Shown piece after piece: positions 3,744-23,368 of a stretch of 34,390 bases of DNA. The stretch's first letter is position 1. Every line of letters starts with the position of its first letter. Source of the stretch: Bacteroidales bacterium. GTDB taxonomy: Bacteria > Bacteroidota > Bacteroidia > Bacteroidales > WCHB1-69. The position numbers and the translations under genes are program-made. The DNA is taken from positions 1-34,390 of the forward strand of contig JAAYQB010000006.1 in NCBI GenBank assembly GCA_012519525.1, written 5' to 3'. The notes under the pieces are model-generated. The model ran no database searches. It had not been told where the DNA came from and saw only the letters and a list, made by a program, of their open reading frames with translations.

Positions 3744-3931
3744 TCAAATCGGGTGGAATCAATAAAAGTAGATGTTAATAAAAGCAAATTGACTAATTTT
3801 GAATTTTTATCGGTCGATAGCATAAGCTAATATTTTTATATACTGATAATTATTATTTTTTTTCATAATTGTATATATCTTTTCAAAAATTTACGTTATA
3901 TAAAACTGAAACATGTAATGATAATACGAAA

Positions 3932-4522
3932 ATGATAGCTTATATTCAAGGAAAATTAATTGAAAAAACGCCTACTTATGCCGTGATAGACTGTAGCGGT
4001 GTAGGTTTTATGCTCAATATATCCCTTAACACCTACTCTGCCCTACCCGATGTCAATCAAGATTGTAAACTATTTACACATTTATCTATTAAAGAAGATG
4101 CACACACTTTGTATGCCTTTGCAAGCGAAGCCGAAAGACAAATTTTTCGCTTACTCATCACCGTATCGGGAATCGGCGTCAATACGGCACGCATGATTTT
4201 ATCTTCTATCAATCATAGAGATTTAGTAACTTACATAAGTTCTGAAAATGCCGATATATTGCAATCCATCAAAGGCATAGGTGCCAAAACTGCACAACGT
4301 ATCATTATTGACTTAAAAGATAAAATACTAAAAACAGATATCGAACCTACGGAAACATTGTTAGCAGCAAACAATAATAACGCCAACGAAGCGTTATCTG
4401 CACTGATATTATTAGGTTTTTCAAAGCAAGTTGCCGGAAAAGCTATTAGTAAAGTTCTAAAGTCATCTTCAGGCGACTTATCTGTTGAAGAACTCATTAA
4501 ACATGCGTTAAAAATATTGTAG
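3932..4522 (+). CDS. ruvA: Holliday junction branch migration protein RuvA
   Basis: MIAYIQGKL... N-terminus, HhH motifs VSGIGVNTA and IKGIGAKTAQRI, C-terminal EALSALILLGF...VEELIKHALK. Start reassigned from TTG 3869 to the canonical ATG at 3932. Confidence 0.97.
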   Translation: MIAYIQGKLIEKTPTYAVIDCSGVGFMLNISLNTYSALPDVNQDCKLFTHLSIKEDAHTLYAFASEAERQIFRLLITVSGIGVNTARMILSSINHRDLVTYISSENADILQSIKGIGAKTAQRIIIDLKDKILKTDIEPTETLLAANNNNANEALSALILLGFSKQVAGKAISKVLKSSSGDLSVEELIKHALKIL

Positions 4523-4543: not shown

Positions 4544-7500
4544 GTGAAAGTAATAAAGAAATCTTACTACATATTTTATATATTATTACATCTGGTAATA
4601 ATATATTCTTTTGTGCAAGTAGCCCATGCTAACAAACTTTTTTTTGATGCTTATATTTTTCCGAACGATACGGGAAAAAAAATAGTTCCACAACCTTCTA
4701 CTAATCCGTTTCAACAAACGCCTTCCAGTCCGTTTTACTTAAAAGACCCTAAAAACTTCTCAACAAAAATTGAGTATGACCCTAAAAACAACAATTACAA
4801 TTTCCAACAAAAAATAGGCAATACCAATTTTGGCAACCCCGGTAGCATGTCTCTCGACGAATACCTCCAATACGATATTCAAAAAGCGATGAGAGATTAT
4901 TGGCGTCAACGTTCCGGCATTGGCATCAACACCGAATCGCAGCAAGGTATTATTCCTCAAATACGTGTGCCGAGCGAAGCCTTTGAACATATATTCGGAA
5001 GCAGTTTAATTGACATTAAACCTTCAGGCTCTGTCGAATTAAAATTCGGTTTAATTCACACCCAAAACGACAACACTTCTTTAAACACGGACGCACGCCG
5101 ACAAACACGCTTCGATTTTGACCAAAACATTCAAGTCAATTTAAAAGCCAGCATAGGCGACAAGATACATTATAACATGAGTTATAGTACTGAAACCTCT
5201 TTTAATTTTGAAAATAAATACAAACTCGGTTATGAAGGAAAAGAAGATGAAATTATTAAATTAATAGAATTTGGCGATGTTAACCTTCCTTTAAACAGTA
5301 CGTTAATACAAGGCTCGCAAACTTTATTCGGTGTCAAAACCCAATTGCAATTTGGAAAAACAACACTCACTACCGTTATTTCACAACAAAAAGGCGACAA
5401 AACCAATATTGTAGTCGAAAACGGAGCCGAAATGACGGAATTTGAGTTTAAAGCCGATGATTATGAAGAAAACAGACACTTCTTCCTTGCTCAATACTTC
5501 TATGATACTTACGGAGAAGCCATGGCAACACTGCCATTAATTAACTCAAAAGTTACGATTACAAAAATCGAAGTATGGAGAACCAATATAGGTTCTGCAG
5601 TACAGGAAAACAGAAATATCGTAGCACTTGCCGACTTAGGAGAAATTAACCCTCATAATGCCAATGTAAAACGTAATGCAGCCTATCGCCACAACTATCC
5701 TGATAGCAATGCAAACGATTTATTGCAAAACATGGACTACAATAAATTGAGAAATATTAATACGGCAAGCACTTATTTGGAAAGCAAAGGAATGGTTGCC
5801 GGCTTGGATTATGAAAAAATAGAATCTGCCAGATTATTAAGTCCCAGCGAATATACTTTTAATAGCAAACTTGGATTTATCTCATTAACTTCCAAGCTAA
5901 ATGCCGACCAAGCATTAGCCGTAGCTTTTCAATACACTGTCATTGGCGACCCTAATATCTATCAGGTAGGACAATTTTCAAACGAAGTACAAACGCCGGG
6001 TTGTGTTATTGTAAAATTATTGAAAAGTACAGCCGTCAACACTAAAATTCCGATGTGGAAATTAATGATGAAAAACGTTTATTCACTCAACGCTTATCAA
6101 GTTTCAGGAGAAGAATTTCGTTTAAATATTCTTTATAAAGGAGAAGAAGGAGGAGTCGGATTAGGTTATTTCTCAGAAGTAAGCGAAGACTTAAAAGGCG
6201 TTTCACTCATACGTATTATGGGCTTAGACCGTCTGAACTATCAACAAGCGGCAATCCCCGACGGAGTTTTCGACTTTATTGACGGAGCTGCCACAGTTGG
6301 AGGAACCATTCAAGCCGAATACGGACGTATTTACTTCCCTACTGTCGAACCTTTTGGTAAAGATTTACGCGAAACATTGAAAAACAGTCCGGGAGCAGGC
6401 GATAAATATGCTTTCGATTCATTGTATACAACCACTAAAACCCTTGCTCAACAATATTCTGAAAAAAACAAATACTATTTGGAAGGACGCTATAAGTCCA
6501 CTTACGGCAACGAGATATCGCTCGGTGTTTGGAACATTGCTCAAGGCTCCGTTACCGTTACTGCCGGAGGTGTTACACTCACCGAAGGAGTCGATTATTC
6601 TGTCGACTACAATGCGGGAACCTTGCGTATATTGAACCAAAACTATTTAAGTTCAGGCACACCCATCAATATTTCCGTAGAAAGCACCAACGTCATGGGA
6701 ACCACAAAAACCATGTTCGGATTGCATGTCGACCATGCCTTAAACAAGGACATGGTAATAGGTGCTACCCTCTTAAATTTACGAGAAAGAACAGAAACTT
6801 TCAAAGTTAATTTTGGAGAAGAACCTATCAATAATACCATTTGGGGATTAAACTTTGCCATGCAAAAAGACGTTCGAGCAATTACAAAAGCTTTGAATTA
6901 TCTTCCTATCTATAAAACCAAGCAAGAATCAAGTATTCAATTCGATGGAGAATTTGCACACTTTATTCCGGGACATACTCGCAGCATAGGTAGAGGCAAT
7001 AAAGCACAACTGTATGTTGACGACTTTGAAGCAGCAAAAACAACCATTAATTTAACTACACCCGGTTTTTGGTTTTTAGCAAGCACACCTCAACACCAAA
7101 CTAAAAAAGGCATGTTTCCTGAAGCAGCATTGGGAAGTGGCTTACAATACGGTTTTAATAGAGCTAAAATAGCATGGTACATTATTGACCCTCTCTTTCA
7201 CAATAATAGCTCTTCAACACCTTCTAATATTACCGCAGACGACAAGTCGGAAATGTATTCACGACGTATTTTAATAAAAGAAGTTTTCCCTTATAAAAGC
7301 ATTGACGCTACAAGTCAAGACCCTTATTTATCCGTATTAAATTTGGCTTTTTATCCGAAAGAACGAGGTCCTTACAATTATGATGCCTTAGGTGTGGCGG
7401 GAATTTCTGCAGGATTAAATAGCGACGGAAGTTTAAAAAATCCGGAAACTCGTTGGGGAGGAATTATGAGAAAATTAGAATCTACTGATTTTGAAACATC

Positions 7501-10500
7501 TAATATTGAATACATTGAATTTTGGATGATGGACCCATTTTATGGAAATCCTAATCACAGCGGTGGAAAATTATATTTTAATTTAGGAGATATATCGGAA
7601 GACATATTACGCGACGGACGGAAAAGTTTCGAACATGGATTACCACCCGACGGAAGTGATGAAAATGTTGATTATACGATATGGGGAAGGGTACCTAATA
7701 CACAATCTATTGTTTCCGCTTTCGATAATTCGGTAGCTTCGAGAAAATACCAAGACGTTGGCTATGACGGACTTTACGACTCTTTGGAACGTATTCATTT
7801 CAGCGATTATTTAGCTACCGTAAAAGGAATCCTTAGTGCCGACGCATACACAGCAATAGCCAACGACCCTTCAGCCGATAATTACCACTACTTCAGAGGA
7901 AGTAAGTATGACAACGATAATATTAAAATATTAGAAAGATACAAATATTTCAACAATACGGAAGGAAATTCTCCTACCGACGATGATAACCCTGAAAAAT
8001 ATCCTACGCAATCCTCATCTTATCCCAATATGGAAGACATCAACAACGACAATACCTTAAGTGAAGATGAACGATATTATCAATACGTCGTTGAATTAAA
8101 TCCTGATAAAATGCAGATTGGCGAAAGCTACATTGTTGATATTATGGAAAACCAAAATGTACGTTTAGAAAACGGCAAAGTAGTAGCTATCAAATGGTAT
8201 CAATTTAAAATCCCGATTCGCAAACCCGACGAAGTGATAGGCAGTATTAGCGATTTTTCTTCTATCCGCTTTATGCGTATGTTTTTAAAAGGATTTAAAG
8301 AAGATGTTGTCTGCCGTTTCGGAACACTTGAATTAGTAAGAGGCGATTGGAGACAATACACAAAAGATCTTAAACAAAACGGAGATTATCCTATAGGAAT
8401 CGTTAACGACAACACTAGTTTCTACGTATCTACTTTAAGTCTCGAAGAAAACTATCATCGCAAACCCATTCCTTATCGTATGCCCGGAGGTTTGGAAAGA
8501 GAAGAGATATACTCCCCTACCAATACCATTAAAGAACTCAACGAGCAAAGTGTTACCATGAAAGTAACCAACTTAATCGACGGCGATGCTCGTGCTATTT
8601 ATAAAAACACCAACTTCGACTTCAGACGATTCAAAGTATTACGCTTTTATCTACATGCCGAAAAAGTATTTGAAGAAGAGCAACTCCAACAAGGTGATGT
8701 TACTTTCTTTATCCGCTTAGGCTCCGATGCTTCCGAAAATTATTACGAATATGAAATTCCTGTTGCTCTAACACCATGGTACACAAAAGACACTGCACTC
8801 ATCTGGCCTTCAGAAAACAACATAGAAATCGAGTTACAAAAGCTAATAGATGCCAAACAAGAAAGAAACATAGCCAACAGAAGCGGTGCCGATTTCCCTC
8901 ACAATGAACCCTATTTGGTAAGAGACGGAAAAAACACCATCCGAGTTGTCGGCGCACCTAACTTAAGCGATATCAACGTTATTGTAATGGGAATTCGTAA
9001 TCCTAAAAAACGAAGCCTTGACGAAAAAGACGATATGCTGCCAAAATCAGTGGAAATATGGGTAAATGAGTTGCGATTAGGCAATTTCGAGGAAAAAGGA
9101 GGTTGGGCGGCAAGAGGTAATTTAAAGGTAAATCTTGCCGATTTAGGCGATGTGTCTTTAGCAGGTAGCATACGAACTGCCGGATTCGGTGCCTTAGAAT
9201 CCAATACTTATACCCGCTTACAAGAAACAATAACGAATTTTGATGTCGCCACTAATTTACAGTTAGGAAAATTTTTACCCGAAAAATGGAGTGTTAGCAT
9301 TCCCTTTCATTACGATTATTCAAGAACTACCAGCACCCCGGAATACAATCCTCTAAATCCGGACGTAAAATTAAAAAATGATTTAAAAACTTATACTTCT
9401 AAACACGATATAGATTCTATTAAAAAACAAACATTAGAAATCGTACAACGTCAAAACTTCAGCTTAATGAATGTCAGTAAAGGCAAAACAGGCAGTGGAA
9501 AAAATTATGTTTGGGGACTTGAAAACTTCGATTTTTCTTATGCTTATACCGAAAAAAACGTACAAGACATTAATTACGAATACGATGATTTAGTTACACA
9601 TAGCGGTGAAATAGGATATACCTATGGCTGGAGTCCGAAAAACTATAAACCCTTTGATAAATTTCAAAAATTAAAATCCATCAAGTGGTTGCAATTACTC
9701 TATGACTTTAATTTTTATCTTCTTCCTAAGTCATTTTCTTTCTCTACCGATATTTATCGTTATTATCAAGAAAGTAAAATACGCAATAAAAGTCGGGGTA
9801 TTATCATAACAGAACCAATGTATGTTAAAGCTTTTGAATGGTCGAGGAACTACACAATAGCATGGGATATCACTCAAGCACTCAAATTTGACTTTTCGGC
9901 TAAAGCCGAATCACTGATTGATGAACCTCAAGGAAGAATAGATACAAGAACAAAAAAAGATTCTATTTGGCACAATGTAGGAAAATTAGGACGAATTAAT
10001 ACTTATTCCCAAAATTTCAACGCCAGCTATCAAATACCTATTAATAAAATACCCTTATTTAGCTTTATAACCAGCAATGTTCGTTATGCTTCTACGTATC
10101 GTTGGGAATTAGCACCTCCTGCCATTGATTATCTTGGTAACAACATAGAAAACTCAAACACCAAACAGTTTAATATCAATGCCGGATTTACAGCTATTTA
10201 CAACAAATCAAAATACCTAAGAAAAGTAAATCAAGGAACTTTCGGAAGCAGTTTATACGATAAACCTATTTTAAAATCAAAGCAAGAACAATGGAATAAA
10301 GAACAACAACAATTACGTGCAAGCAAAAACATCCTCAAAAACGACTCTACTGCCAACGAAGAAGAAGAAGAACCTAAACAAACTAAAAACTACGGTAAGG
10401 AAGTTTTAGATAATTTTCTACGTTTATTAATGTTAGTTAAAAATGTTTCTTTTTCTTATACCGAAGGAAACGGAATTTCCTTACCGGGATATATGCTTAG

Positions 10501-11788
10501 TCCTAATGTTTTCGGCTTATCTGTCAATGACAATTTCGCACCGGGTTTCCTCTTTGTCTTCGGACATCAAGAGCCTGATATTGTCGGCAAAGGTTCTCAA
10601 AACAATTGGCTCACCAATAGCGACTTGCTCAACACCCCTTATATGCAAAAACACAATAAGAACATGCAAATACAAGCTACGTTGCAGCCGTTCAGTAATT
10701 TCAGAATACAGCTTACGGCTACACGCAGCAATTCAACCACCGATCAATTTTATTACCTCGCCGACAGCAATGGCGTTTTCGACAAATACACCCGTCAACA
10801 AATAGGAAGTTTTAGCATAACAACAATCAGTCTTTCTACTCTGTTTGAACCAAAAAGAGAAAAAAATGCCAGCAAAAATTTTGAAACATTCAAATTGTAT
10901 CGTTTAGCAATAGCACAACGATTGGCTGAAGACAGAGCTGCCCGTCAACCGAGCTATACAAAAGGAAATGATAAATTCCCTGACGGATATAGCAACTTAA
11001 GTCAAGATGTATTATTATATTCATTTATAGCAGCTTATGTAGGAAAATCTCCCAAAGAAGTGAATATTTCATCTCCATTTTTCAATATACCGCTTCCTAA
11101 TTGGAACATTAACTACAGCGGATTATCAAAAATTCCGGCATTAAGCAAGTATTTCCAAAACATCACGATTGCACATGCCTACATGTGTACGTATCAAATT
11201 GGAGGCTATGCTACCAATCTCTTATACAATCCCGAAGATGGTGATTTACAAAACATACGCGATGCTTTAAACAATTTTATTCCCGTAATAGAATACGGAC
11301 AAGTGGCAATAGTAGAAAATATGTCGCCGGTAATCTCATTGAATATAAGCATGCAAAACAGCTTTGAGTTCAAAGCCGAATGGAAAAAATCACGTAGCGT
11401 AACCATGAGTACTTCCAGTTTCCAAATATCGGAACAAACCAACAATGAATTCATTGTCGGAACCGGCTATCGAATCAAAGACATAAAAGTAACCTACAAC
11501 TTTTCAGGAGTAAAACGTCAATCAATTAGTGATTTAATACTTAAATTGGATTTTTCTATTCGTGATAATAAAACCATCCTACGTAAAATAGAAGAAGGTG
11601 TAAATCAGCCTTCTGCCGGACAGATAATTTATTCTATTAACTTCCTTGCCGAATACGTGCTGACAAAAAATGTATCGCTGAAAGCCTATTACGACCACGT
11701 ATTCAACAAGCCTGTATTATCGGGGAGCATATCGAGTCTAACTATCAATGCCGGAATTGGAGTGAAAATCAATTTTACTCAAATATAA
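4544..11788 (+). CDS. sprA: Type IX secretion system outer-membrane translocon SprA/Sov
   Basis: 2414 aa, with motifs typical of SprA: IFGSSLIDIKPSGSVEL, FDFDQNIQVNL, YEENRHFFL, WKLMMKNVY, IEYIEFWMMDPF, FNLGDISEDILRDGRKSFEHGLP and VEIWVNELRL. ruvA-sprA adjacency is typical of Bacteroidota. The GTG start is uncertain. Confidence 0.95.
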   Translation: MKVIKKSYYIFYILLHLVIIYSFVQVAHANKLFFDAYIFPNDTGKKIVPQPSTNPFQQTPSSPFYLKDPKNFSTKIEYDPKNNNYNFQQKIGNTNFGNPGSMSLDEYLQYDIQKAMRDYWRQRSGIGINTESQQGIIPQIRVPSEAFEHIFGSSLIDIKPSGSVELKFGLIHTQNDNTSLNTDARRQTRFDFDQNIQVNLKASIGDKIHYNMSYSTETSFNFENKYKLGYEGKEDEIIKLIEFGDVNLPLNSTLIQGSQTLFGVKTQLQFGKTTLTTVISQQKGDKTNIVVENGAEMTEFEFKADDYEENRHFFLAQYFYDTYGEAMATLPLINSKVTITKIEVWRTNIGSAVQENRNIVALADLGEINPHNANVKRNAAYRHNYPDSNANDLLQNMDYNKLRNINTASTYLESKGMVAGLDYEKIESARLLSPSEYTFNSKLGFISLTSKLNADQALAVAFQYTVIGDPNIYQVGQFSNEVQTPGCVIVKLLKSTAVNTKIPMWKLMMKNVYSLNAYQVSGEEFRLNILYKGEEGGVGLGYFSEVSEDLKGVSLIRIMGLDRLNYQQAAIPDGVFDFIDGAATVGGTIQAEYGRIYFPTVEPFGKDLRETLKNSPGAGDKYAFDSLYTTTKTLAQQYSEKNKYYLEGRYKSTYGNEISLGVWNIAQGSVTVTAGGVTLTEGVDYSVDYNAGTLRILNQNYLSSGTPINISVESTNVMGTTKTMFGLHVDHALNKDMVIGATLLNLRERTETFKVNFGEEPINNTIWGLNFAMQKDVRAITKALNYLPIYKTKQESSIQFDGEFAHFIPGHTRSIGRGNKAQLYVDDFEAAKTTINLTTPGFWFLASTPQHQTKKGMFPEAALGSGLQYGFNRAKIAWYIIDPLFHNNSSSTPSNITADDKSEMYSRRILIKEVFPYKSIDATSQDPYLSVLNLAFYPKERGPYNYDALGVAGISAGLNSDGSLKNPETRWGGIMRKLESTDFETSNIEYIEFWMMDPFYGNPNHSGGKLYFNLGDISEDILRDGRKSFEHGLPPDGSDENVDYTIWGRVPNTQSIVSAFDNSVASRKYQDVGYDGLYDSLERIHFSDYLATVKGILSADAYTAIANDPSADNYHYFRGSKYDNDNIKILERYKYFNNTEGNSPTDDDNPEKYPTQSSSYPNMEDINNDNTLSEDERYYQYVVELNPDKMQIGESYIVDIMENQNVRLENGKVVAIKWYQFKIPIRKPDEVIGSISDFSSIRFMRMFLKGFKEDVVCRFGTLELVRGDWRQYTKDLKQNGDYPIGIVNDNTSFYVSTLSLEENYHRKPIPYRMPGGLEREEIYSPTNTIKELNEQSVTMKVTNLIDGDARAIYKNTNFDFRRFKVLRFYLHAEKVFEEEQLQQGDVTFFIRLGSDASENYYEYEIPVALTPWYTKDTALIWPSENNIEIELQKLIDAKQERNIANRSGADFPHNEPYLVRDGKNTIRVVGAPNLSDINVIVMGIRNPKKRSLDEKDDMLPKSVEIWVNELRLGNFEEKGGWAARGNLKVNLADLGDVSLAGSIRTAGFGALESNTYTRLQETITNFDVATNLQLGKFLPEKWSVSIPFHYDYSRTTSTPEYNPLNPDVKLKNDLKTYTSKHDIDSIKKQTLEIVQRQNFSLMNVSKGKTGSGKNYVWGLENFDFSYAYTEKNVQDINYEYDDLVTHSGEIGYTYGWSPKNYKPFDKFQKLKSIKWLQLLYDFNFYLLPKSFSFSTDIYRYYQESKIRNKSRGIIITEPMYVKAFEWSRNYTIAWDITQALKFDFSAKAESLIDEPQGRIDTRTKKDSIWHNVGKLGRINTYSQNFNASYQIPINKIPLFSFITSNVRYASTYRWELAPPAIDYLGNNIENSNTKQFNINAGFTAIYNKSKYLRKVNQGTFGSSLYDKPILKSKQEQWNKEQQQLRASKNILKNDSTANEEEEEPKQTKNYGKEVLDNFLRLLMLVKNVSFSYTEGNGISLPGYMLSPNVFGLSVNDNFAPGFLFVFGHQEPDIVGKGSQNNWLTNSDLLNTPYMQKHNKNMQIQATLQPFSNFRIQLTATRSNSTTDQFYYLADSNGVFDKYTRQQIGSFSITTISLSTLFEPKREKNASKNFETFKLYRLAIAQRLAEDRAARQPSYTKGNDKFPDGYSNLSQDVLLYSFIAAYVGKSPKEVNISSPFFNIPLPNWNINYSGLSKIPALSKYFQNITIAHAYMCTYQIGGYATNLLYNPEDGDLQNIRDALNNFIPVIEYGQVAIVENMSPVISLNISMQNSFEFKAEWKKSRSVTMSTSSFQISEQTNNEFIVGTGYRIKDIKVTYNFSGVKRQSISDLILKLDFSIRDNKTILRKIEEGVNQPSAGQIIYSINFLAEYVLTKNVSLKAYYDHVFNKPVLSGSISSLTINAGIGVKINFTQI

Positions 11789-12256: not shown

Positions 12257-14671
12257 ATGATTTACCCGGCTAACTTTGAAAAAAAAATAGATTTTCACCA
12301 AATCCGATTTTTTTTAAAAGAAAATTGCATCAGCACTTTGGGTAAAGACAAAGTAGATGACATCGAATTTCAAACCGACATACATCTAATTACTGCTTTA
12401 CAGGAAATTACTGAAGAATTTAGACAAATATTACTCTTCGAACCTTCCTTCCCGACACAAGATTATCTTGACATCCGACAAGCACTATCTCACTTGGAAA
12501 TTGAAGGAACAGCAATTGACATAGAAACTCTTGGAAACTTAAGAGCCGTATTAAAAACCATACAAGATTGTTTGGTCTTCTTTAGAGTAAAAAAAGAAGA
12601 AGAAAAATACCCTTTTTTACAACAGCTTGGCGAAAACATAATAGTAGACAATGCACTTATTCAAAACATTAATGCAATAATAGACAGCAAAGGCAATATA
12701 AAAGACAATGCCTCACCGGAATTGCAAACCATTCGTCAAAAAATAAAAGCCAAAGAAACTGAAATACAAAAACAACTACATAAAATTATCTCACAAGCTA
12801 AAAAAGAAGATATTATAGAATCGGATACAAGTTTTACCGTTCGCGAAGGGCGATTGGTCATTCCTATACCGGCAGCACACAAACGCCGAATGAAAGGTTT
12901 TATTCATGACGCATCGGCAACAGGACAAACTTTTTTTATCGAACCGCAAGAAGTATTTGAAGCCAACAATTATCTTCGTGATTTGCTTTCGATGGAAAAA
13001 AAAGAAATACTCCGCATATTAAAAAACTTCACCGATTTATTGCGACCCGACATTTCTTCTATTAAAGAAGCTTTGAACTACTTAGGACAATTGGATTTTA
13101 TCAGAGCTAAAGCCAAATTTACTTTAACGATAGATGCCGTTAAACCAATCATTAACAATCAATCCATTATCAATTGGAAAAAAGCAAAACATCCCATACT
13201 ATATTTAAACTTTCAACATCAACAAAAAAAAGTCGTTCCTTTAGATATTGCTATTGATAATCAAAATCGTATATTAATCATATCGGGTCCCAATGCCGGC
13301 GGAAAATCGGTCTGCTTAAAAACGGTCGGATTGCTGCAATACATGTTTCAATGCGGACTTTTGGTACCCGTATCGGAACTTTCCGAATTTGGAATATTTC
13401 ATAACTTATTCATTGACATAGGCGACGAACAATCCATAGAAAACGATTTAAGCACCTATAGTTCCCATCTGAAAAATATGGATACTATTTTAAAACATGC
13501 CGACGACCGCAGTCTTTTTTTAATGGACGAATTGGGCAGCGGTACCGACCCCCAATACGGTGGTGCTATCGCTGAGGCTTTTCTTGAAACTTTATCGAAA
13601 AAGAAAACATTAGGCGTTATCACAACACATTTCGGCAATCTAAAAACAATAGCTACCACTACCGAAGGATTACAAAATGCAGCTATGCTCTTCGACGACG
13701 AAACAATGAGTCCATTATTCATTTTAAAATCAGGAAAATGGGGAAGTTCTTTTACCTTTGAAATTGCAAAAAAAATAGGATTTTCACAACAATTACTCGA
13801 CGAGGCTATAAAAAAAATCGGAACCAATCAAATAGATTATGAATTATTGCTGCATCAGCTCGAACAAGAAAAAGTAGTAATCGACAATCAAAAACGCATG
13901 ATAGATGCTGTTGATAATCAATTAAAAGAACTAATTGACAAATATGAAACATTGAACGATACTCTTCGAGAGCAAAAAAATGAAATAGTGAAAAACGCTA
14001 AGATAGAAGCAAAAAAAATTATTGACAACGCCAATAAAATTATTGAAAAAACCGTTAAAGAAATAAAAGAACACAAAGCTGACAAAGAAGTAGTTAAACA
14101 ATTAAAAGAGGAAATAAAAAAAGTAGAAAAAACAATACAGCTCCCCACTACTCTACCCGTTTTGCCTACTTCTATAAAAAAACAAAAAAAAGAAAATACC
14201 ACAATAAAACTATCGGACTATGTAATTATTAAAGATACGAATACCGTAGGACAAATTACAGCCATTGATAATGAAAACATTGTAGTAACATTTAATTCCA
14301 TCAACTTTAAAACAACCATTGACAAAGTCGTAAAAACAAACAATATTCCAAAAACCCAACAACAACACTCTACAACTATTAATAATCAGAATATTTACAG
14401 TGAAATTCATCATAAACTCATTCATTTTACAACCGAATTAGACATTCGCGGGCTAAGAGTGGACGAAGCTTCCGAAAAATTAGAACGCTATATAGATGAT
14501 GCCATTTTATTGCACTTACGAGAAGTAAGTATCATTCATGGAAAAGGCAACGGCGTTTTACGCAGTATAACACGTGACTTACTGTCTAAAAATAAACAAG
14601 TTATAAATTTTCACGATGACGACCCATTGTTAGGCGGAAGCGGAAAAACAATAGTGCAACTTAAAAATTAA
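12257..14671 (+). CDS. mutS2: Endonuclease MutS2 (MutS ATPase + coiled coil + Smr domain)
   Basis: Walker A ISGPNAGGKS, DIGDEQSIENDLSTYSSHL, DELGSGTDPQYG, ITTHF, and a C-terminal Smr domain ELDIRGLRVDEA...IIHGKGNGVLR...GGSGKTIV. Confidence 0.95.
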   Translation: MIYPANFEKKIDFHQIRFFLKENCISTLGKDKVDDIEFQTDIHLITALQEITEEFRQILLFEPSFPTQDYLDIRQALSHLEIEGTAIDIETLGNLRAVLKTIQDCLVFFRVKKEEEKYPFLQQLGENIIVDNALIQNINAIIDSKGNIKDNASPELQTIRQKIKAKETEIQKQLHKIISQAKKEDIIESDTSFTVREGRLVIPIPAAHKRRMKGFIHDASATGQTFFIEPQEVFEANNYLRDLLSMEKKEILRILKNFTDLLRPDISSIKEALNYLGQLDFIRAKAKFTLTIDAVKPIINNQSIINWKKAKHPILYLNFQHQQKKVVPLDIAIDNQNRILIISGPNAGGKSVCLKTVGLLQYMFQCGLLVPVSELSEFGIFHNLFIDIGDEQSIENDLSTYSSHLKNMDTILKHADDRSLFLMDELGSGTDPQYGGAIAEAFLETLSKKKTLGVITTHFGNLKTIATTTEGLQNAAMLFDDETMSPLFILKSGKWGSSFTFEIAKKIGFSQQLLDEAIKKIGTNQIDYELLLHQLEQEKVVIDNQKRMIDAVDNQLKELIDKYETLNDTLREQKNEIVKNAKIEAKKIIDNANKIIEKTVKEIKEHKADKEVVKQLKEEIKKVEKTIQLPTTLPVLPTSIKKQKKENTTIKLSDYVIIKDTNTVGQITAIDNENIVVTFNSINFKTTIDKVVKTNNIPKTQQQHSTTINNQNIYSEIHHKLIHFTTELDIRGLRVDEASEKLERYIDDAILLHLREVSIIHGKGNGVLRSITRDLLSKNKQVINFHDDDPLLGGSGKTIVQLKN

Positions 14672-18268: not shown

Positions 18269-19519
18269 TTACTCTAATTCGTGAATAACTAAACCTGAGC
18301 GTAACTTAGGTTCAAACCACGTTGTTTTTGGCGGCATAATATTGCCCGTATCAGCAATATTAATAAGTTGTTGCATAGAAACGGGATACAATGCAAAAGC
18401 TACTGCCATCTCACCACTATCAACACGACGTTTCAACTCGCCTAAACCTCGTATTCCGCCAACAAAATCAATACGATTCGATGTTCTTAAATCTTTAATA
18501 CCTAATATTTTATCTAAAACCAAATTCGATAAAATAGTAACATCTAACACACCAATAGGGTCGCTATCATCGTAAGTAGACGGCTTGGCTGTTAAACGAT
18601 ACCATTTTCCATCGATATACATACTAAATTCATGTAATTGAGCCGGTTTATAAATGTCTTTTCCCATTTCCTCTACTTTAAAAGTAGCTTTTAGTTTTTC
18701 GATAAACTCTTCTTTCGATAAACCGTTCAAATCTTTTACCACTCGATTATAATCTATGATTTTCAATTGATTATCAGGGAAAATAACCGTCATAAAGTAA
18801 TTATATTCTTCTTTTCCCGTGTGGTTTTTATTTTTCGCTTTTTGTTCTCCTCCTACCAATGCTGCCGCTGCCGTACGATGATGACCGTCGGCTACATATA
18901 AATAAGGAATTTCTTTATCAAAAATATCAACAATACGTTGTATGATTGCTTTGTCTTTTATCACCCATAGGGTATGTCCGAAACCTTCGTCGGCAATAAA
19001 ATCATATTCCGGCTCTTGCGTGGCAACGATATTCGACACTATCTCATCTATCTTTTTATTAGCCGGATAGGTGAAAAACACAGGTTCAACATTCGCATTG
19101 GTATTGCGAATATGTATCATGCGGTCTTCTTCTTTTGCTTTGAGTGTCAATTCGTGCTTTTTAATCTTTTCGCTAAGATAATCATCTCGATGAGAACAAG
19201 TTAATATTCCATACTGTGTTCTTCCATCCATAGTTTGGGCATAGATGTAGAGGTATTCATCTTCGTCTTGAATCAACCATTTATTATCTTTAAACTTTTT
19301 ATAATTTTCCGTTACTTTATCATAGACTTCTTGACTATGCTCATCGGTACCTACAGGAAGGTCTATTTCCGCTTTTGTAATATGTAACAAAGAATAAGGA
19401 TTATTAGCTGCTTCTGCACGTGCTTCTTCCGAATTCAATACGTCATAAGGACGGGATGCTAATTGCTTAACGATTTCTTTAGGTGGACGTAAGCCTTTAA
19501 ATGGTTTTATGATTGCCAT
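18269..19519 (-). CDS. DUF1015 family protein
   Basis: MAIIKPFKGLRP, SRPYDV, IKKHELT, YVADGHHRTAAA, IMPPKTTWFEPKLRSGL. Confidence 0.92.
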   Translation of the reverse strand: MAIIKPFKGLRPPKEIVKQLASRPYDVLNSEEARAEAANNPYSLLHITKAEIDLPVGTDEHSQEVYDKVTENYKKFKDNKWLIQDEDEYLYIYAQTMDGRTQYGILTCSHRDDYLSEKIKKHELTLKAKEEDRMIHIRNTNANVEPVFFTYPANKKIDEIVSNIVATQEPEYDFIADEGFGHTLWVIKDKAIIQRIVDIFDKEIPYLYVADGHHRTAAAALVGGEQKAKNKNHTGKEEYNYFMTVIFPDNQLKIIDYNRVVKDLNGLSKEEFIEKLKATFKVEEMGKDIYKPAQLHEFSMYIDGKWYRLTAKPSTYDDSDPIGVLDVTILSNLVLDKILGIKDLRTSNRIDFVGGIRGLGELKRRVDSGEMAVAFALYPVSMQQLINIADTGNIMPPKTTWFEPKLRSGLVIHELE

Positions 19520-19585
19520 ATTTCTTAATTTATTTTTATTATTTAATTGATTTTCAATAGTAGAAACTTATTGTTTCATCCGTTG

Positions 19586-19593
19586 CAAAAATA
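19586..19593 (-). promoter_or_regulatory. -7 box TATTTTTG for the DUF1015 gene
   Basis: caaaaata on +, about 65 nt upstream of the ATG. Confidence 0.6.
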
Positions 19594-19662
19594 CAAAATT
19601 ATTCAATGATAATAAACAGTATTTGAAAAATATTTAAGCATTTATATTTTATTACCTACAGC

Positions 19663-19687
19663 AACAAATAAATGTATATTTTTGCAA
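19663..19687 (+). repeat. 25-bp direct repeat copy 1 (AACAAATAAATGTATATTTTTGCAA) containing a -7 promoter box
   Basis: Identical to 20292-20316 and 20942-20966; contains TATTTTTG. Confidence 0.9.
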
Positions 19688-19738
19688 AAAACATGAAATT
19701 AACATGATTAACTAAACCACATTAAAATTCAAAATAAT

Positions 19739-20200
19739 ATGAAAAAATATCTTATAGCTTTTGTTTTAATTTCTACTTTTTATTCTTTTTGTTTTTCACA
19801 AGAGTTTGATCTAGAGGTAGAGTCTGATTATCGAGAATTTCGTTGTGGATGTAAAAAAGGGATTGATACATTTAATATAGTTATTTATGATACAAATATT
19901 CTAAACGAATATATAGGATTTGCTTTGATAGAATTCACTTTAAATAGTATTGCAGCAGATTCTATTGAACTAATTGATGTAAAAATTGTAGGAATTCAAT
20001 TACAAGATATCAATACAAAAGAAATAATTATGACTCTGAAAGACAATAAAGATAGTCTATTTAAGTTGTATGAAAACAAACTTCTTTTAATTTTGAAAGG
20101 ATATAAATGTTGGTTCATTAAAAATGATATTGATAAAACATTTTGTCATAGAGTTTTAGCTTTTTATCCATTAAATGTTAGCAATTCCCCACATAAATAA
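19739..20200 (+). CDS. Hypothetical exported protein (153 aa)
   Basis: Signal peptide MKKYLIAFVLISTFYSFCFS/Q, very AT-rich codons, preceded by the promoter repeat; no family recognised. Confidence 0.75.
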   Translation: MKKYLIAFVLISTFYSFCFSQEFDLEVESDYREFRCGCKKGIDTFNIVIYDTNILNEYIGFALIEFTLNSIAADSIELIDVKIVGIQLQDINTKEIIMTLKDNKDSLFKLYENKLLLILKGYKCWFIKNDIDKTFCHRVLAFYPLNVSNSPHK

Positions 20201-20291
20201 TGTTCCATTTGATACTTTTTTGTTGTTGTTTTTAGAAAACAGAAAGAAAAAAAAACTTCGGTCAAAATACTTTTATTTTTTTATCTACTGA

Positions 20292-20316
20292 AACAAATAA
20301 ATGTATATTTTTGCAA
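20292..20316 (+). repeat. 25-bp direct repeat copy 2 containing a -7 promoter box
   Basis: Identical to copies 1 and 3. Similarity to copy 1 extends ~15 nt upstream (ttat.tt...ctac.g). Confidence 0.9.
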
Positions 20317-20405
20317 CATTAAAAAATAAAAATATTAACAAATAAAAAAAACTGTCCTACTATAGGGGGACACTTTACAATTATTGCAACAACAAAATAA
20401 CACAA

Positions 20406-20981
20406 ATGAAAAGAAGTCAAATTAACTATTTTGTTTTTTATATCCTATTTTTATTAATAGGAATGCCGTATGGTTGTAAATTTAAAAATATTGGGAAGAT
20501 GAATTCAAATAAAAATTCTCTTTGTTATTATTTTGGAGATGAATACGTAATTTCAGGAACACTTTTAGTGCGAGATTTATATGGAGCACCAAATTATGGA
20601 GAGACACCTGACGTTGATAAACTTGAAAAATTTTATTTTATAATCATAGATACAGCTATAAATATATTTGTCAAGGATACTATTAATTCTTACAATTTAA
20701 AAAATAAATATTCTCAATCATGTTTTCAAATTTTAGGATATGATTCAATTATCAATGGTAAATTTTGTAGTTATTATTCACTTTATTTAATGAAATTACA
20801 ATCTGGATCAAAAATTTGTCTAAAAGGGTATTTTGATAGTGCAATAACTGGACATCATCATACGGATGTATTATTTATTGTAGAAAAAAATCCCCCGATA
20901 GATAACCCCTCTTCAGTTGCAAATAAAAAAAGAAGAAAGAAAACAAATAAATGTATATTTTTGCAAAACGAAATAATATAA
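20406..20981 (+). CDS. DUF4431-like protein, probable lipoprotein
   Basis: Hydrophobic N-terminus ending PYGC. Motifs ISGTL...YGAPNYGETPDVD and KGYFDSAITGHHHTDVLF are recognised as DUF4431-like. The last ~28 codons look like read-through over the third repeat. Confidence 0.7.
   Translation: MKRSQINYFVFYILFLLIGMPYGCKFKNIGKMNSNKNSLCYYFGDEYVISGTLLVRDLYGAPNYGETPDVDKLEKFYFIIIDTAINIFVKDTINSYNLKNKYSQSCFQILGYDSIINGKFCSYYSLYLMKLQSGSKICLKGYFDSAITGHHHTDVLFIVEKNPPIDNPSSVANKKRRKKTNKCIFLQNEII
20942..20966 (+). repeat. 25-bp direct repeat copy 3 containing a -7 promoter box
   Basis: Identical to copies 1 and 2; followed only by an 11-codon ORF (MHLTYNAIKSQ, ATG at 20987). Confidence 0.9.
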
Positions 20982-21063
20982 AAAAAATGCACTTAACCTA
21001 TAACGCAATAAAATCGCAATAAGCTGTAAAACAAAGGAAAGCTGAAAGAAGTTACTTCCTTAC

Positions 21064-21112
21064 GTCCATTCGTAATTTTTAATTGTCAATTCGTAATTTG
21101 TAATTCTAAATT
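21064..21112. repeat. Degenerate 7-bp tandem array (NNNAATT x7)
   Basis: gtccatt cgtaatt tttaatt gtcaatt cgtaatt tgtaatt ctaaatt. Confidence 0.8.
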
Positions 21113-21125
21113 CTACCTTTTTAAC

Positions 21126-21143
21126 CGCAAAGAACGCAAAGAA
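21126..21143. repeat. 9-bp direct repeat CGCAAAGAA x2
   Basis: ttaac-cgcaaagaa-cgcaaagaa-tt. Confidence 0.6.
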
Positions 21144-21216
21144 TTCCGTTTGAAATTTTTCCACTAACTATTAATGCTAATGTATAACATGTGTCAACTT
21201 TTTTCAGGACGCGACA

Positions 21217-21251
21217 CTAAATTCTAATTTCTAAATTCTAATTTCTAATTT
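21217..21251. repeat. 7-bp tandem array CTAA(A/T)TT x5
   Basis: ctaaatt ctaattt ctaaatt ctaattt ctaattt. Confidence 0.8.
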
Positions 21252-21271
21252 TTTTAGGACATATCAAACAA

Positions 21272-23368
21272 CTATATTTTCACTATCATTTGTAAGTGTA
21301 TATCCGATTTATTATTTCCATTAATGGCATCTAAAGCGGTTCCTATCGTATGTTTGTTTTTATAAAAACTTTGAGCTACTCTCAGCCATAGGTCTATATA
21401 AGAAGTGATTTCTACTTTCATCATCGCATAAAGTCGGCTTCCTATGCCGTAATAAGCAGGAATAGAGGAAGTATACAGCACATCGTTTTCGTAAGCATAC
21501 AAACGCGTATCGTAAGAATCGGTATGAAACAAAGCGTAGCGTCCTGTCAATGTTAGCCATTTGTATTGCCAAGCAATATCTTGATAGATTAAATAACCCT
21601 TCGATTTTTCCTTGTTTTTTTCCGTCTTACACACCACATATTCTAAGCAGCTTTTTAATTGTAAATTGGAAAGAGGTTTATAGATAGCATTGAAACGATA
21701 ATTTTGTTTTTTTACCGCTGTCAATTGATTGTAATATTCCATGGATTCATTGGTGTTTTTATCGGAATGTTTGAACTGAAAATAGCAAGAAAATTTTCTG
21801 TTTACATTACATATCAGCCTTGCCAACACTTTATAAGAACTTGAGGGTGCGTCGCTTGTGTATTTCAGCCACATAAAACGATAATAGTCTATATTGGCAT
21901 TAAGGATTAAGTATTTATTTAAAAACACCTGCGTTCCTATTACTAATCCGTTTTCATTGCCGATATTGGTTGCCTGCCGATAGGCATTGCCTTGTATAGC
22001 CTGATAATCTTTACTGTAATAGCGATGTAAAAGCGTAAAATTCAGTAAAGGGTCTGCATAATAAATCAATCCGTTTAAAAGAGCAAAACCCCCGTAATGT
22101 GTTACTGCATTTTCGCCAAAAACACTTACTTTTTTAATGATTGCATTATAGCTAACACTTGCATTCAACACATCTTGTTGATTGATTTTATAGAAGTTAT
22201 AAGGTTTCGGCTCTACATAAAACGGACGATTGTAATGCGAATAAAACACCCCCGCTCCTACTCTTACCACACGATGGGTGTAATGAGCAAACATTCCCGC
22301 TACTTGTTGGTCAACATTGTTTTTTCTTTCTATTTCCGTCGTAGTGCGATGATAGCCTGTTTCTTGTAAAGAATAAATAAACTCTTGCTCGCTGTTTTCC
22401 ACTTTATTCACATTCGCATCTTTTTGACGATAGGAATAAAATAACGCCAAGCGAAACTTTCTAAATTGCAGTTCCGTAGCAGCACCACGCAAAAAATTAT
22501 TTTCATTGGAAGAAGTATAAGGTGCAACAGCTTTTGCATAACGATAAATTTCCATAGGATTAATGATAGTCGGCGGTTGAAAACCTGTCCACATTGCCAA
22601 TCCTTGTCCAAAACGAATTTGATAATCACCTACAGCTAACGATTTTATACATTTAATGTCTTTCATAAAAAAATGAAAAGAATAAAAATCGAAACCGTAT
22701 CTGTTACTTCCTTTAAAAAACTCTTCTCCCGCATCTTTTTCGGCAGTAAAGCCAAAACGCACTTTAGATGCATAATCAAATTTATACTTAAACAATAAGT
22801 AAGGCTGACTTCCTCTATAAACGGCATTGGGTTTTAATTCCAATAAAGAATCGGATAAGGTAGTGTAACCGACTTGCTTATTCAATACTTGACGGTAACG
22901 CATTAAACAAGTGTTTTTTCCATATTTAAAGACCTTTTTAAAGGTCATTTTTCGACTTTGGTCAACGGGTAACAATACGATATAAGGCAAGAGCATACGA
23001 ACCGTTTCCATCGTAAAACCCTCAACAGCTGCCAATTCGTATAAACTAACCATAGCTCCGTTGACATCTAAATACATTTTAAGATGGTATATTTGATAAT
23101 CCGTTAACTTAAATACCGCCATTAAAACATCGTAATCAGGCTGGTTGATATTGATTTTATTTTCACGATAATAAGCGTATTCTTCTATTATTTCACTATA
23201 ATCTTGCTCTTCTTCCGCTTCTTCGGCTAAATTTTCGAGTTGCAACATAAAATCATCTTCTTGTATCAACTCCTTCTCTTTAAAAACAATCGTATCAATT
23301 TGAGCTAACAAAAAAATACTTTTTTGACAAAGCAAAAACAAACAAGCTATCAATAAGTATTTACGCAT
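21272..23368 (-). CDS. Helix-hairpin-helix (ComEA-like) domain outer-membrane protein
   Basis: Signal peptide ...LLA/Q; HhH-like segment KININQ...GAMVSLYELAAVEGF; then a beta-strand-rich region with GFTAEKDAGE, DFYSF, GDYQIRFGQGL and YDTRLYAYENDVLY; barrel-like C-terminus HLQMIVKI. Confidence 0.8.
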   Translation of the reverse strand: MRKYLLIACLFLLCQKSIFLLAQIDTIVFKEKELIQEDDFMLQLENLAEEAEEEQDYSEIIEEYAYYRENKININQPDYDVLMAVFKLTDYQIYHLKMYLDVNGAMVSLYELAAVEGFTMETVRMLLPYIVLLPVDQSRKMTFKKVFKYGKNTCLMRYRQVLNKQVGYTTLSDSLLELKPNAVYRGSQPYLLFKYKFDYASKVRFGFTAEKDAGEEFFKGSNRYGFDFYSFHFFMKDIKCIKSLAVGDYQIRFGQGLAMWTGFQPPTIINPMEIYRYAKAVAPYTSSNENNFLRGAATELQFRKFRLALFYSYRQKDANVNKVENSEQEFIYSLQETGYHRTTTEIERKNNVDQQVAGMFAHYTHRVVRVGAGVFYSHYNRPFYVEPKPYNFYKINQQDVLNASVSYNAIIKKVSVFGENAVTHYGGFALLNGLIYYADPLLNFTLLHRYYSKDYQAIQGNAYRQATNIGNENGLVIGTQVFLNKYLILNANIDYYRFMWLKYTSDAPSSSYKVLARLICNVNRKFSCYFQFKHSDKNTNESMEYYNQLTAVKKQNYRFNAIYKPLSNLQLKSCLEYVVCKTEKNKEKSKGYLIYQDIAWQYKWLTLTGRYALFHTDSYDTRLYAYENDVLYTSSIPAYYGIGSRLYAMMKVEITSYIDLWLRVAQSFYKNKHTIGTALDAINGNNKSDIHLQMIVKI

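Follow-up and report, generated by a model that had tools for sequence, protein, structure and literature searches.

The present analysis concerns a repeat-headed gene array in a Bacteroidales bacterium of the WCHB1-69 lineage. The window, i.e., the whole stretch of DNA analysed, covers 34,390 nt (contig JAAYQB010000006.1, positions 1 to 34,390 of the forward strand; contig C156 below) of a 1.96-Mb assembly (GCA_012519525.1; G000 below) comprising 169 contigs with 33% GC and estimated to be 97.7% complete. Between a housekeeping gene of the DUF1015 family and a gene for a 698-aa exported protein lie three co-oriented units, each headed by an identical 25-nt repeat: a 153-aa open reading frame (ORF; g1), a 191-aa ORF (g2) and a stump with a very short frame. 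The features of the locus are as follows; TIR-L and TIR-R denote two end motifs described below.

18269..19519, minus strand: DUF1015 housekeeping gene (PF06245, E 2e-113), left flank, divergent from the array
19663..19687, plus strand: putative promoter copy 1 (P1), exact 25-mer, member of the 42-copy genome-wide family
19688..19738, plus strand: leader of cassette 1, related in a flank comparison of all copies to the leader type before cassettes on C132 and C149
19739..20200, plus strand: g1, 153-aa orphan ORF with a signal-peptide-like N-terminus
20198..20213, plus strand: degenerate cassette-end motif of TIR-L type (aligned by eye to the C26/C56 junction type), with the g1 stop at the TAG position of intact copies
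20292..20316, plus strand: putative promoter copy 2 (P2), exact 25-mer, family member
20317..20378, plus strand: shared leader module with the palindromic TIR-R at 20351-20373, 25-60 genome repeats by BLASTN depth
20406..20981, plus strand: g2, probable diverged DUF4431-family lipoprotein by its profile relatives, stop apparently lost, frame entering P3
20942..20966, plus strand: putative promoter copy 3 (P3), exact 25-mer, family member
20967..21036, plus strand: stump of the Rhs-toxin leader, whose 11-residue frame (20987-21022) is the leader start with a premature stop
21037..21271: repeat-rich array tail, including a CGCAAAG-type repeat near 21124-21150, BLASTN depth 3-46 copies per position
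21272..23368, minus strand: 698-aa exported protein, right flank, convergent on the array, with a weak helix-hairpin-helix match below the cut-off (PF21687, E 1.5e-4)

The 25-mer occurs exactly at 19663, 20292 and 20942 on the plus strand, at spacings of 629 and 650 bp, where no occurrence is expected by chance; the window holds no fourth copy at up to three mismatches, and 100 shuffles gave no match. Each copy contains TATTTTTG (19677-19684, 20306-20313 and 20956-20963), which fits TAnnTTTG, the -7 consensus of Bacteroidota promoters. The initial annotation had described exactly these three repeats with their -7 box, and the search confirms it; its view of the 25-mer as a promoter is very probably right. 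The ORFs of 153 and 191 aa begin 51 nt downstream of copy 1 and 89 nt downstream of copy 2, respectively, and only a 12-codon frame (11 residues and a stop) follows copy 3. GC content is 0.22-0.25 across 19501-21000, compared with about 0.31-0.40 in most of the window. BLASTN depth over 19400-21400 places the three inter-ORF stretches at 20-60 genome copies and the coding parts at a single copy. The adjacency of g1 and g2 comes from the window's own assembly; among the pieces listed, contigs of an independent landfill metagenome run, X3, break at 20332/20348, inside the repeated leader.

The initial annotation had left open whether the 25-mer recurs elsewhere in the genome. Its exact form is confined to this locus, but the element is not local: 54 sites in G000 match at up to three mismatches, and a degenerate version of the pattern (up to one mismatch) has 42 sites in G000 and five in each of two of the seven congeners; the 38 other genomes searched have none, and the pattern reversed as a control has no sites. 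The family is a modular mosaic. Around an invariant core of about 22-25 nt, upstream module types and downstream leader types combine freely: type U1 is paired with leader types D1 (six copies), D2 (four), D3 (two) and D4 (one) and with unique flanks (five), type U2 with D1 (three), D3, D4 and D5 (one each) and unique flanks (three), and 15 of 54 copies are unique on either side of the core. Ahead of unrelated ORFs, stretches of 60-125 nt are common to many copies at 85-99% identity; for the three copies in the window the common stretch is only 25 nt, with identity stopping at the edges of the 25-mer. These long identities, together with the jump in copy number and the bias in cargo, show that the family spread by descent and not by convergence.

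Neighbouring copies resemble each other more than distant ones. Identical promoter copies are found in 9 of 20 neighbouring pairs as against 181 of 1465 other pairs (permutation p ~0.001), and three private promoter variants, the window's among them, occur solely as neighbours. This pattern fits local copying or gene conversion and not an independent arrival of the window's three copies.

The genes downstream are mostly small, low in GC and unrelated. With the family counted as the 55 sites at up to three mismatches from the consensus, a same-strand ATG-initiated ORF of at least 40 aa starts 5-196 nt downstream (search up to 260 nt) in 46 cases, among which all-versus-all BLASTP finds two related pairs. 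A Pfam scan took 40 of the 46 proteins (four were left out, and g1 and g2 were scanned separately) and assigned no family at E<=0.01 to 31 of them; the remaining nine match rubrerythrin, a nucleotidyl transferase, YhcG nuclease, H+-pyrophosphatase, HydF, a PGA_cap protein, DUF2007, a LysM protein and a sub-threshold DUF3397. Of 34 proteins labelled as orphans by hand, 31 carry a signal-peptide- or anchor-like N-terminus under a crude hydropathy rule. On another contig (C130:10060-11200), the same junction type brackets a small antitoxin-like gene and an apparent Fic/Doc gene (HPFREGNGR motif, by eye), followed by a YhcG-like nuclease gene, which suggests that the cassette family also carries toxin-antitoxin or defence-type genes.

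Two further motifs accompany the junctions. TIR-R is a 23-nt palindromic motif just before genes, itself a 7+7-nt inverted pair, with 25 sites in G000. TIR-L is a motif of about 16 nt just after genes, with 49 sites at up to three mismatches (a few of them spurious), 37 of which follow an open frame of at least 80 codons. Over about 15 of 17 positions, each is the inverted form of the other. Both are present in only about 5 of 55 junctions, and no “empty” adjacency of TIR-R and TIR-L occurs in G000. In the window, the g1 stop lies in the degenerate TIR-L, junction 2 carries a TIR-R, and the 3' motif of g2 is gone. A short, GC-richer, often tandem and hairpin-forming repeat of CGCAAAG / CTCTGCG type (window 21124-21150; many sites in G000, e.g., C149:2888-2935) lies within many junctions, where it separates the cassette-end motif from the promoter.

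The sequence behind copy 3 connects the locus to polymorphic toxins. The 70 nt following this copy (20967-21036) are 82-94% identical to 14 other places in G000, and at three of them, two on C16 and one on C91, the frame beginning MHLTYN continues into ORFs of 281-338 aa. All three score 56-63 bits against NCBIfam TIGR03696, the RHS repeat-associated core (cut-off 32.5), and a Pfam scan of them returned nothing. A fourth ORF, of 457 aa on C57, can be aligned with all three in that core stretch (phmmer E 4e-14 to 6e-33) and is followed by a gene for a 144-aa lipoprotein and then by two promoter-headed orphan genes; a small exported ORF follows each Rhs-core ORF. Genome-wide the leader has 13 matches, four of them intact and the others stumps or cut by contig ends, and in the two congeners with the promoter it stands mostly before this same Rhs leader. 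The window's leader acquires a premature stop and breaks off before the Rhs core, leaving its first 70 nt. The initial annotation had rightly seen only an 11-residue frame here, but its “empty slot” does not hold: by this homology, copy 3 is a putative decayed Rhs-toxin leader stump and not an empty slot. A small RNA had also been considered for the copy-3 leader; the window copy folds no better than shuffles (z -0.85), the 14-copy alignment has no consensus structure, and the idea was dropped because the leader proved to be coding.

As the initial annotation had held, the two window genes are unrelated, exported and low in GC: g1 and g2 have no similarity in all-versus-all BLASTP (E<=1e-3), and the cassettes are absent from all congeners searched. 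For g1, no Pfam or NCBIfam family was found; a search of 5.8 billion proteins gave one 95%-identical match and nothing further, the gene is in none of the seven congeners and has one weak match (31% identity) among 120 genomes of the family, and the ESM Atlas returned unnamed Bacteroidota clusters alone, at TM below 0.45. For g2, the label DUF4431 stands in part. Its own PF14485 score is 16 bits (E 0.011), below the 24-bit cut-off, but a profile built from g2 and close relatives reaches 290 representative proteins; of the 40 that were aligned, 38 match PF14485 at E<=0.01. Relatives at 84% and 71% identity have a clear lipobox and end about 24 codons before the window's stop, which suggests that g2 lost its stop and reads into copy 3. 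It is the sole DUF4431 gene in G000 and is absent from all seven congeners; the 71%-identical relative belongs to another genus. A scan of genome contigs for g2 gave no match, in metagenomes the 71% relative was found at two loci, neither with the promoter, the DUF4431 profile had no real match among solved structures, and a literature search for “DUF4431” found nothing. At somewhat less than even odds, g1 and g2 would be orphan immunity-type proteins held in reserve, as their association with Rhs-type fragments suggests.

Contigs from metatranscriptome libraries match the array with no mismatches: in three runs on g1 (19706-19860, 19957-20313 and 19995-20157), on g2 (20346-20603, 20682-21000 and 20712-20988, two of which run through copy 3) and on the stump and tail (20831-21217, 20959-21209 and 20998-21209). 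One of them starts at 19706, just 3' of P1. Such contigs give no level, strand or ends, and the libraries can hold DNA; stretches free of RNA contigs were given no weight. A promoter scan of sigma-70 type is uninformative for this phylum, no intrinsic terminator was predicted, and Rfam gave nothing near threshold for the window region and two loci with intact leaders.

Comparison with relatives points to turnover over evolutionary time. Orthologues of the DUF1015 gene, 80-91% identical, exist in all seven congeners, and in the five with enough flank the array-side neighbour differs each time, g1, g2 and the 698-aa gene not being there. In the closest relative (DUF1015 91% identical) the neighbour is panD/panC, and in G000 panD lies 14 nt from a contig end. 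At the one empty site compared, the closest relative lacks a cassette that G000 carries on C132, the two flanking genes being the same (a gap of 179 nt versus 1049 nt), and gene and junction are absent together. At another site (G000:C9:17361-17790 versus G002:C13 of the closest relative), G000 carries an additional 387 nt of repeat modules between the rubrerythrin promoter and a tRNA gene, a clean insertion of junction material that brought no gene with it.

The locus itself now seems stable, and present activity is not supported. The contigs listed from run X3 cover 18900-20332, 20348-21136 and 21219-21900 with no differences, and, of the words sampled from 18900-21900, 98-99% are present in 14 DNA runs, which come from at least 11 studies but are all flagged as possible sources and are not independent. 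Contig joints that skip 580-871 nt have sides of only 21-26 letters; they are probably other copies of the repeats and were not taken as evidence.

Taken together, these observations suggest, with a probability of about 0.6, that 19663-21271 forms one small, outlying array within a cassette family that is spread over the genome and belongs to an Rhs-type polymorphic-toxin system, in which cassettes are swapped by ordinary recombination. Its content would be two single-gene orphan immunity-type cassettes, one of them a DUF4431 lipoprotein, and a decayed orphan Rhs-toxin leader. Each of the three units would be headed by a copy of one Bacteroidota-type promoter firing into g1, g2 and the stump, and the promoter, leader and tail modules common to about 50 cassettes would serve as homology patches, at which ordinary recombination or gene conversion could swap, add, delete and relocate cassettes. 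The route would be the C-terminal displacement known from Rhs loci, with no need for a dedicated integrase; the window's three copies may have been made by local copying or conversion, the locus having since been stable.

The architecture corresponds to that of Rhs loci, where recombination between conserved regions leaves truncated “orphaned” toxin domains and immunity genes (Steele et al. 2017, PMC5727410). The likeness to the orphan arrays of enterobacteria and Snodgrassella consists in truncated Rhs genes starting near the conserved core with a small immunity-type gene next to them, in stumps and orphaned immunity genes, and in conserved sequence as the driver of recombination. Truncated ORFs with TIGR03696 and a variable C-terminus occur in G000 on the same modules as those of the window, at other places of the genome. 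In contrast to those arrays, no full-length YD-repeat gene or type VI secretion system (T6SS) was found here, each orphan module has a start codon of its own and a copy of the one promoter, the cassettes do not trail a single rhs gene but are spread over more than 25 contigs, in part as singletons flanked by housekeeping genes, and the additional end motifs TIR-R and TIR-L bracket the genes.

Several observations weigh against this interpretation. The cassette ends are sharp and carry inverted motifs of about 17 nt, as is commoner in site-specific systems than in simple homologous exchange: in 8 of the 37 cases the gene's stop codon is the TAG of TIR-L, and the distance from TIR-R to the next TIR-L is 390-706 nt, or one gene, in 9 of 11 pairs. 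Many of the 169 contigs end in these repeats, and the assembly may lack a recombinase or a long array. Housekeeping genes, too, lie behind the promoter module (rubrerythrin, HydF, H+-pyrophosphatase, a capsule-synthesis gene and others), and the core ahead of the orthologous rubrerythrin gene of the closest relative is near-identical, with one extra A; a favoured strong promoter may be all that part of the family represents. As to toxins, G000 shows no full-length YD-repeat Rhs shell, one weak RHS_repeat match (PF05593, 23.6 bits) lying at a contig end, where the assembly may have missed long repeat genes, and no T6SS sheath gene. As to immunity, g1 and g2 match no immunity family in Pfam or NCBIfam and adjoin no cognate toxin, the AlphaFold2 models of g1 (pLDDT 36) and g2 (pLDDT 30) are both unusable, which leaves association to speak for this function, and the g2 relative in another genus adjoins a large unrecognised ORF and an exported orphan with no toxin recognisable by eye.

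The sharp ends lead to the alternative that fares best, although we regard it as unlikely: an integron-like or rAID-like site-specific capture, in which a recombinase, either unassembled or the host Xer pair, would insert circular cassettes at the TIR or the promoter core, leaving half-sites to bracket the genes. Besides the bracketing motifs, the stop codons within the 3' motif and the 7+7-nt inverted structure of TIR-R, the breaking of the assembly at exactly these repeats is in its favour. So is the distribution of the junction. The TIR-R pattern is absent from the seven congeners but has 4+1 sites in two genomes, one from another family and one from another genus, where homologous junctions with a related promoter, leader and TIR-R stand at contig ends (starts of C8, C35 and C66 and end of C62 in G026; start of C27 in G011), which suggests horizontal spread. 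In the landfill metagenome, the depth over 20314-20414 is about 165 times that of the flanks, more than 25 G000 copies would give; with the junction also found in other genomes, the module seems to be common in the community.

Against capture stands the search for the machinery. No integrase is found among the window's ORFs, as was noted at the outset, and G000 has only two Xer-like tyrosine recombinases (PF00589; C61 and C104; ~300 aa), both beside housekeeping genes and not arrays, with no resolvase, no Y1 and no rve transposase in the 97.7%-complete assembly and one partial DDE transposase gene. This speaks against the gene-capture machine of the initial annotation, in which the 25-mer would itself be the site of recombination. 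Integron cassettes are mostly promoterless, and clusters of attC sites lacking an integrase (CALINs) are known; the window resembles them in its repeat-separated, single-gene units on one strand with no integrase nearby, but its junction carries a promoter in place of an imperfect-palindrome hairpin, and G000 has no IntI-type gene. Folded as DNA, the junction at 20198-20405 gives z -1.41 on the plus strand and -2.39 on the minus strand, the centroid keeping only a 5-bp local hairpin, so the fold is not attC-like. The scarcity of junctions with both TIRs and the private variant common to the window's three copies are likewise difficult to reconcile with capture. Among the joints listed none changes strand, and the shorter side is at most 26 letters (21-26), a length at which joints often come from repeats.

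The likeness to the orphan-immunity arrays (rAID) that the initial annotation had drawn survives in layout and in the company of Rhs-core fragments with small exported genes on the same modules, and fails in the features that define such a system. The reports on rAID-1 of gut Bacteroidales (Ross et al., preprint 10.1101/471110; PMC12247911) describe an XerD-family recombinase heading the array, followed by co-oriented genes of 100-300 codons with unrelated cargo, GC well below that of the genome, repeated intergenic motifs and signs of expression. In these respects, and in being Bacteroidales, the array is alike: with g1 and g2 it has at least two co-oriented short genes at 0.22-0.25 GC (under the 41% given there) and conserved intergenic motifs. 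It differs in the recombinase, since neither PF00589 gene lies 5' of short low-GC genes, and in the cargo, 31 of the 40 scanned proteins being without a Pfam family, the nine others falling into housekeeping, LysM or DUF families, and g1 and g2 having no immunity family. It also differs in its setting, that of a digester organism with no T6SS seen, whose cassettes are dispersed and interspersed with toxin fragments.

A bolder version is conceivable, and equally unlikely: a dispersed cassette system without an integrase, or one borrowing the host Xer proteins, in which the promoter-bearing junction with palindromic ends would be expression signal and exchange site in one, and through which digester Bacteroidales of different families would trade immunity and toxin-tip cassettes at many chromosomal sites.

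Slightly less probable still is a miniature element of Correia or MITE (miniature inverted-repeat transposable element) type with an outward promoter, in which a junction of about 125-300 nt would be the mobile unit and the genes bystanders. At least six contigs (starts of C4, C38 and C45; ends of C55, C104 and C141) start or stop with the same ~125 nt at 99% identity, made up of a promoter variant, leader and TIR-R; beyond the motif they diverge at once, sometimes with no same-strand ORF next. This repeat is a main cause of assembly fragmentation, and the same end recurs at contig ends of the genome from another family. The fullest junction copies do have inverted ends, and mobile repeats bearing promoters are known (PMC3575422). 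Correia elements, as cited in that paper, are likewise short dispersed repeats with inverted ends and outward promoters. Here, however, the ends are usually split across a gene, most copies lack one or both of them, and the modules are re-assorted instead of moving as one unit. No target-site duplication is recognisable by eye and no parent transposase was recognised: an origin of the end motif from an insertion sequence was rejected, as the contig end of the single DDE gene has no matching terminus. An invertible promoter (inverton) would call for a promoter segment in both orientations between inverted repeats; inverted motifs do flank some junctions, no promoter copy in the genome faces away from both neighbours, and no strand-changing joint was listed among the contigs compared, which drop rare variants. 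The joint absence of the low-GC orphan gene and its junction at the C132 site also argues against bystander genes.

The junctions come close to the putative mobile promoters surveyed by Nijveen, Matus-Garcia and van Passel 2012 (PMC3575422), in which highly similar stretches of 50 nt or more lie upstream of unrelated genes of one genome and are also shared between taxa, by a mechanism that was unknown. Many G000 copies reach the identity of at least 80% over at least 50 nt before non-homologous genes used in that survey. The present family differs in being far larger than the pairs that predominated there, in having one functional class of cargo and in its defined 5' and 3' end motifs.

Mobility might be dispensed with altogether if the 25-mer were the lineage's preferred strong promoter, possibly with a palindromic operator for a single regulator, kept by selection before a regulon of exported proteins; this we hold to be improbable. 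The module does head rubrerythrin, HydF, H+-pyrophosphatase, capsule and tRNA-like genes, the closest relative keeps the core at its rubrerythrin gene, and the consensus core, as read, contains a perfect 14-nt palindrome over the -7 box, the commonest variant of the core accounting for 18 of 55 copies. Yet in many copies identity runs 60-125 nt past any plausible binding site, 42 copies here contrast with 0-5 in the seven congeners, selection leaves the private variants shared by neighbours unexplained, and the window version breaks the palindrome at two non-compensating positions. The generic promoter before housekeeping genes, which the initial annotation had itself raised as an objection, is partly real, but the cargo is otherwise mostly orphan. 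The core may have begun as a strong housekeeping promoter or have been donated to one, a case of the “promoter reuse” treated in PMC3575422. On C15 (11011-11100), a promoter with the same right half (GTATACTTTTGCAA) lies directly 5' of an apparent tRNA gene (by eye), which fits the core as a strong-promoter type of the lineage.

A simple tandem duplication, in which g1 and g2 would be diverged paralogues keeping their promoter, can be set aside with near certainty despite the near-equal spacing, common strand and common 25-mer, because the two proteins have no similarity, g2 has 71-84% relatives in DUF4431 that lack the promoter while g1 is not in this family, identity ends exactly at the 25-mer edges and the leaders are of different module types.

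If the reading as an outlying array of an Rhs-type cassette family is correct, orphan toxin and immunity collections would reach beyond gut Bacteroides and T6SS-bearing bacteria to a small-genome lineage of anaerobic digesters. The collection would also be organised differently, with one promoter copy per cassette, dozens of sites and no array-linked recombinase found. The shared promoter could be used to retrieve the complete set from metagenomes and to ask if the cassettes switch on together, and the junction module common with another family would be a lead on how genes travel between species. For annotation, dozens of “hypothetical exported proteins” in metagenome-assembled genomes of this kind may turn out to be one functional class.

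Two observations concern the surroundings of the array. The window encodes a 2414-aa homologue of SprA, the translocon of the type IX secretion system (PF14349, E 1.6e-186; 4544-11788), with RuvA (3869-4522) and MutS2/Smr (12257-14671) as neighbours; this system could serve to export the many cargo proteins with signal peptides. On the left flank, RNA contigs over the DUF1015 gene from three runs end without exception at 19563-19567, some 45 nt 5' of the start codon, where a DNA contig continues. The stop (window 19563-19600) lies just downstream of a minus-strand TATTTTTG box, a weak hint that it marks the transcription start of this gene.

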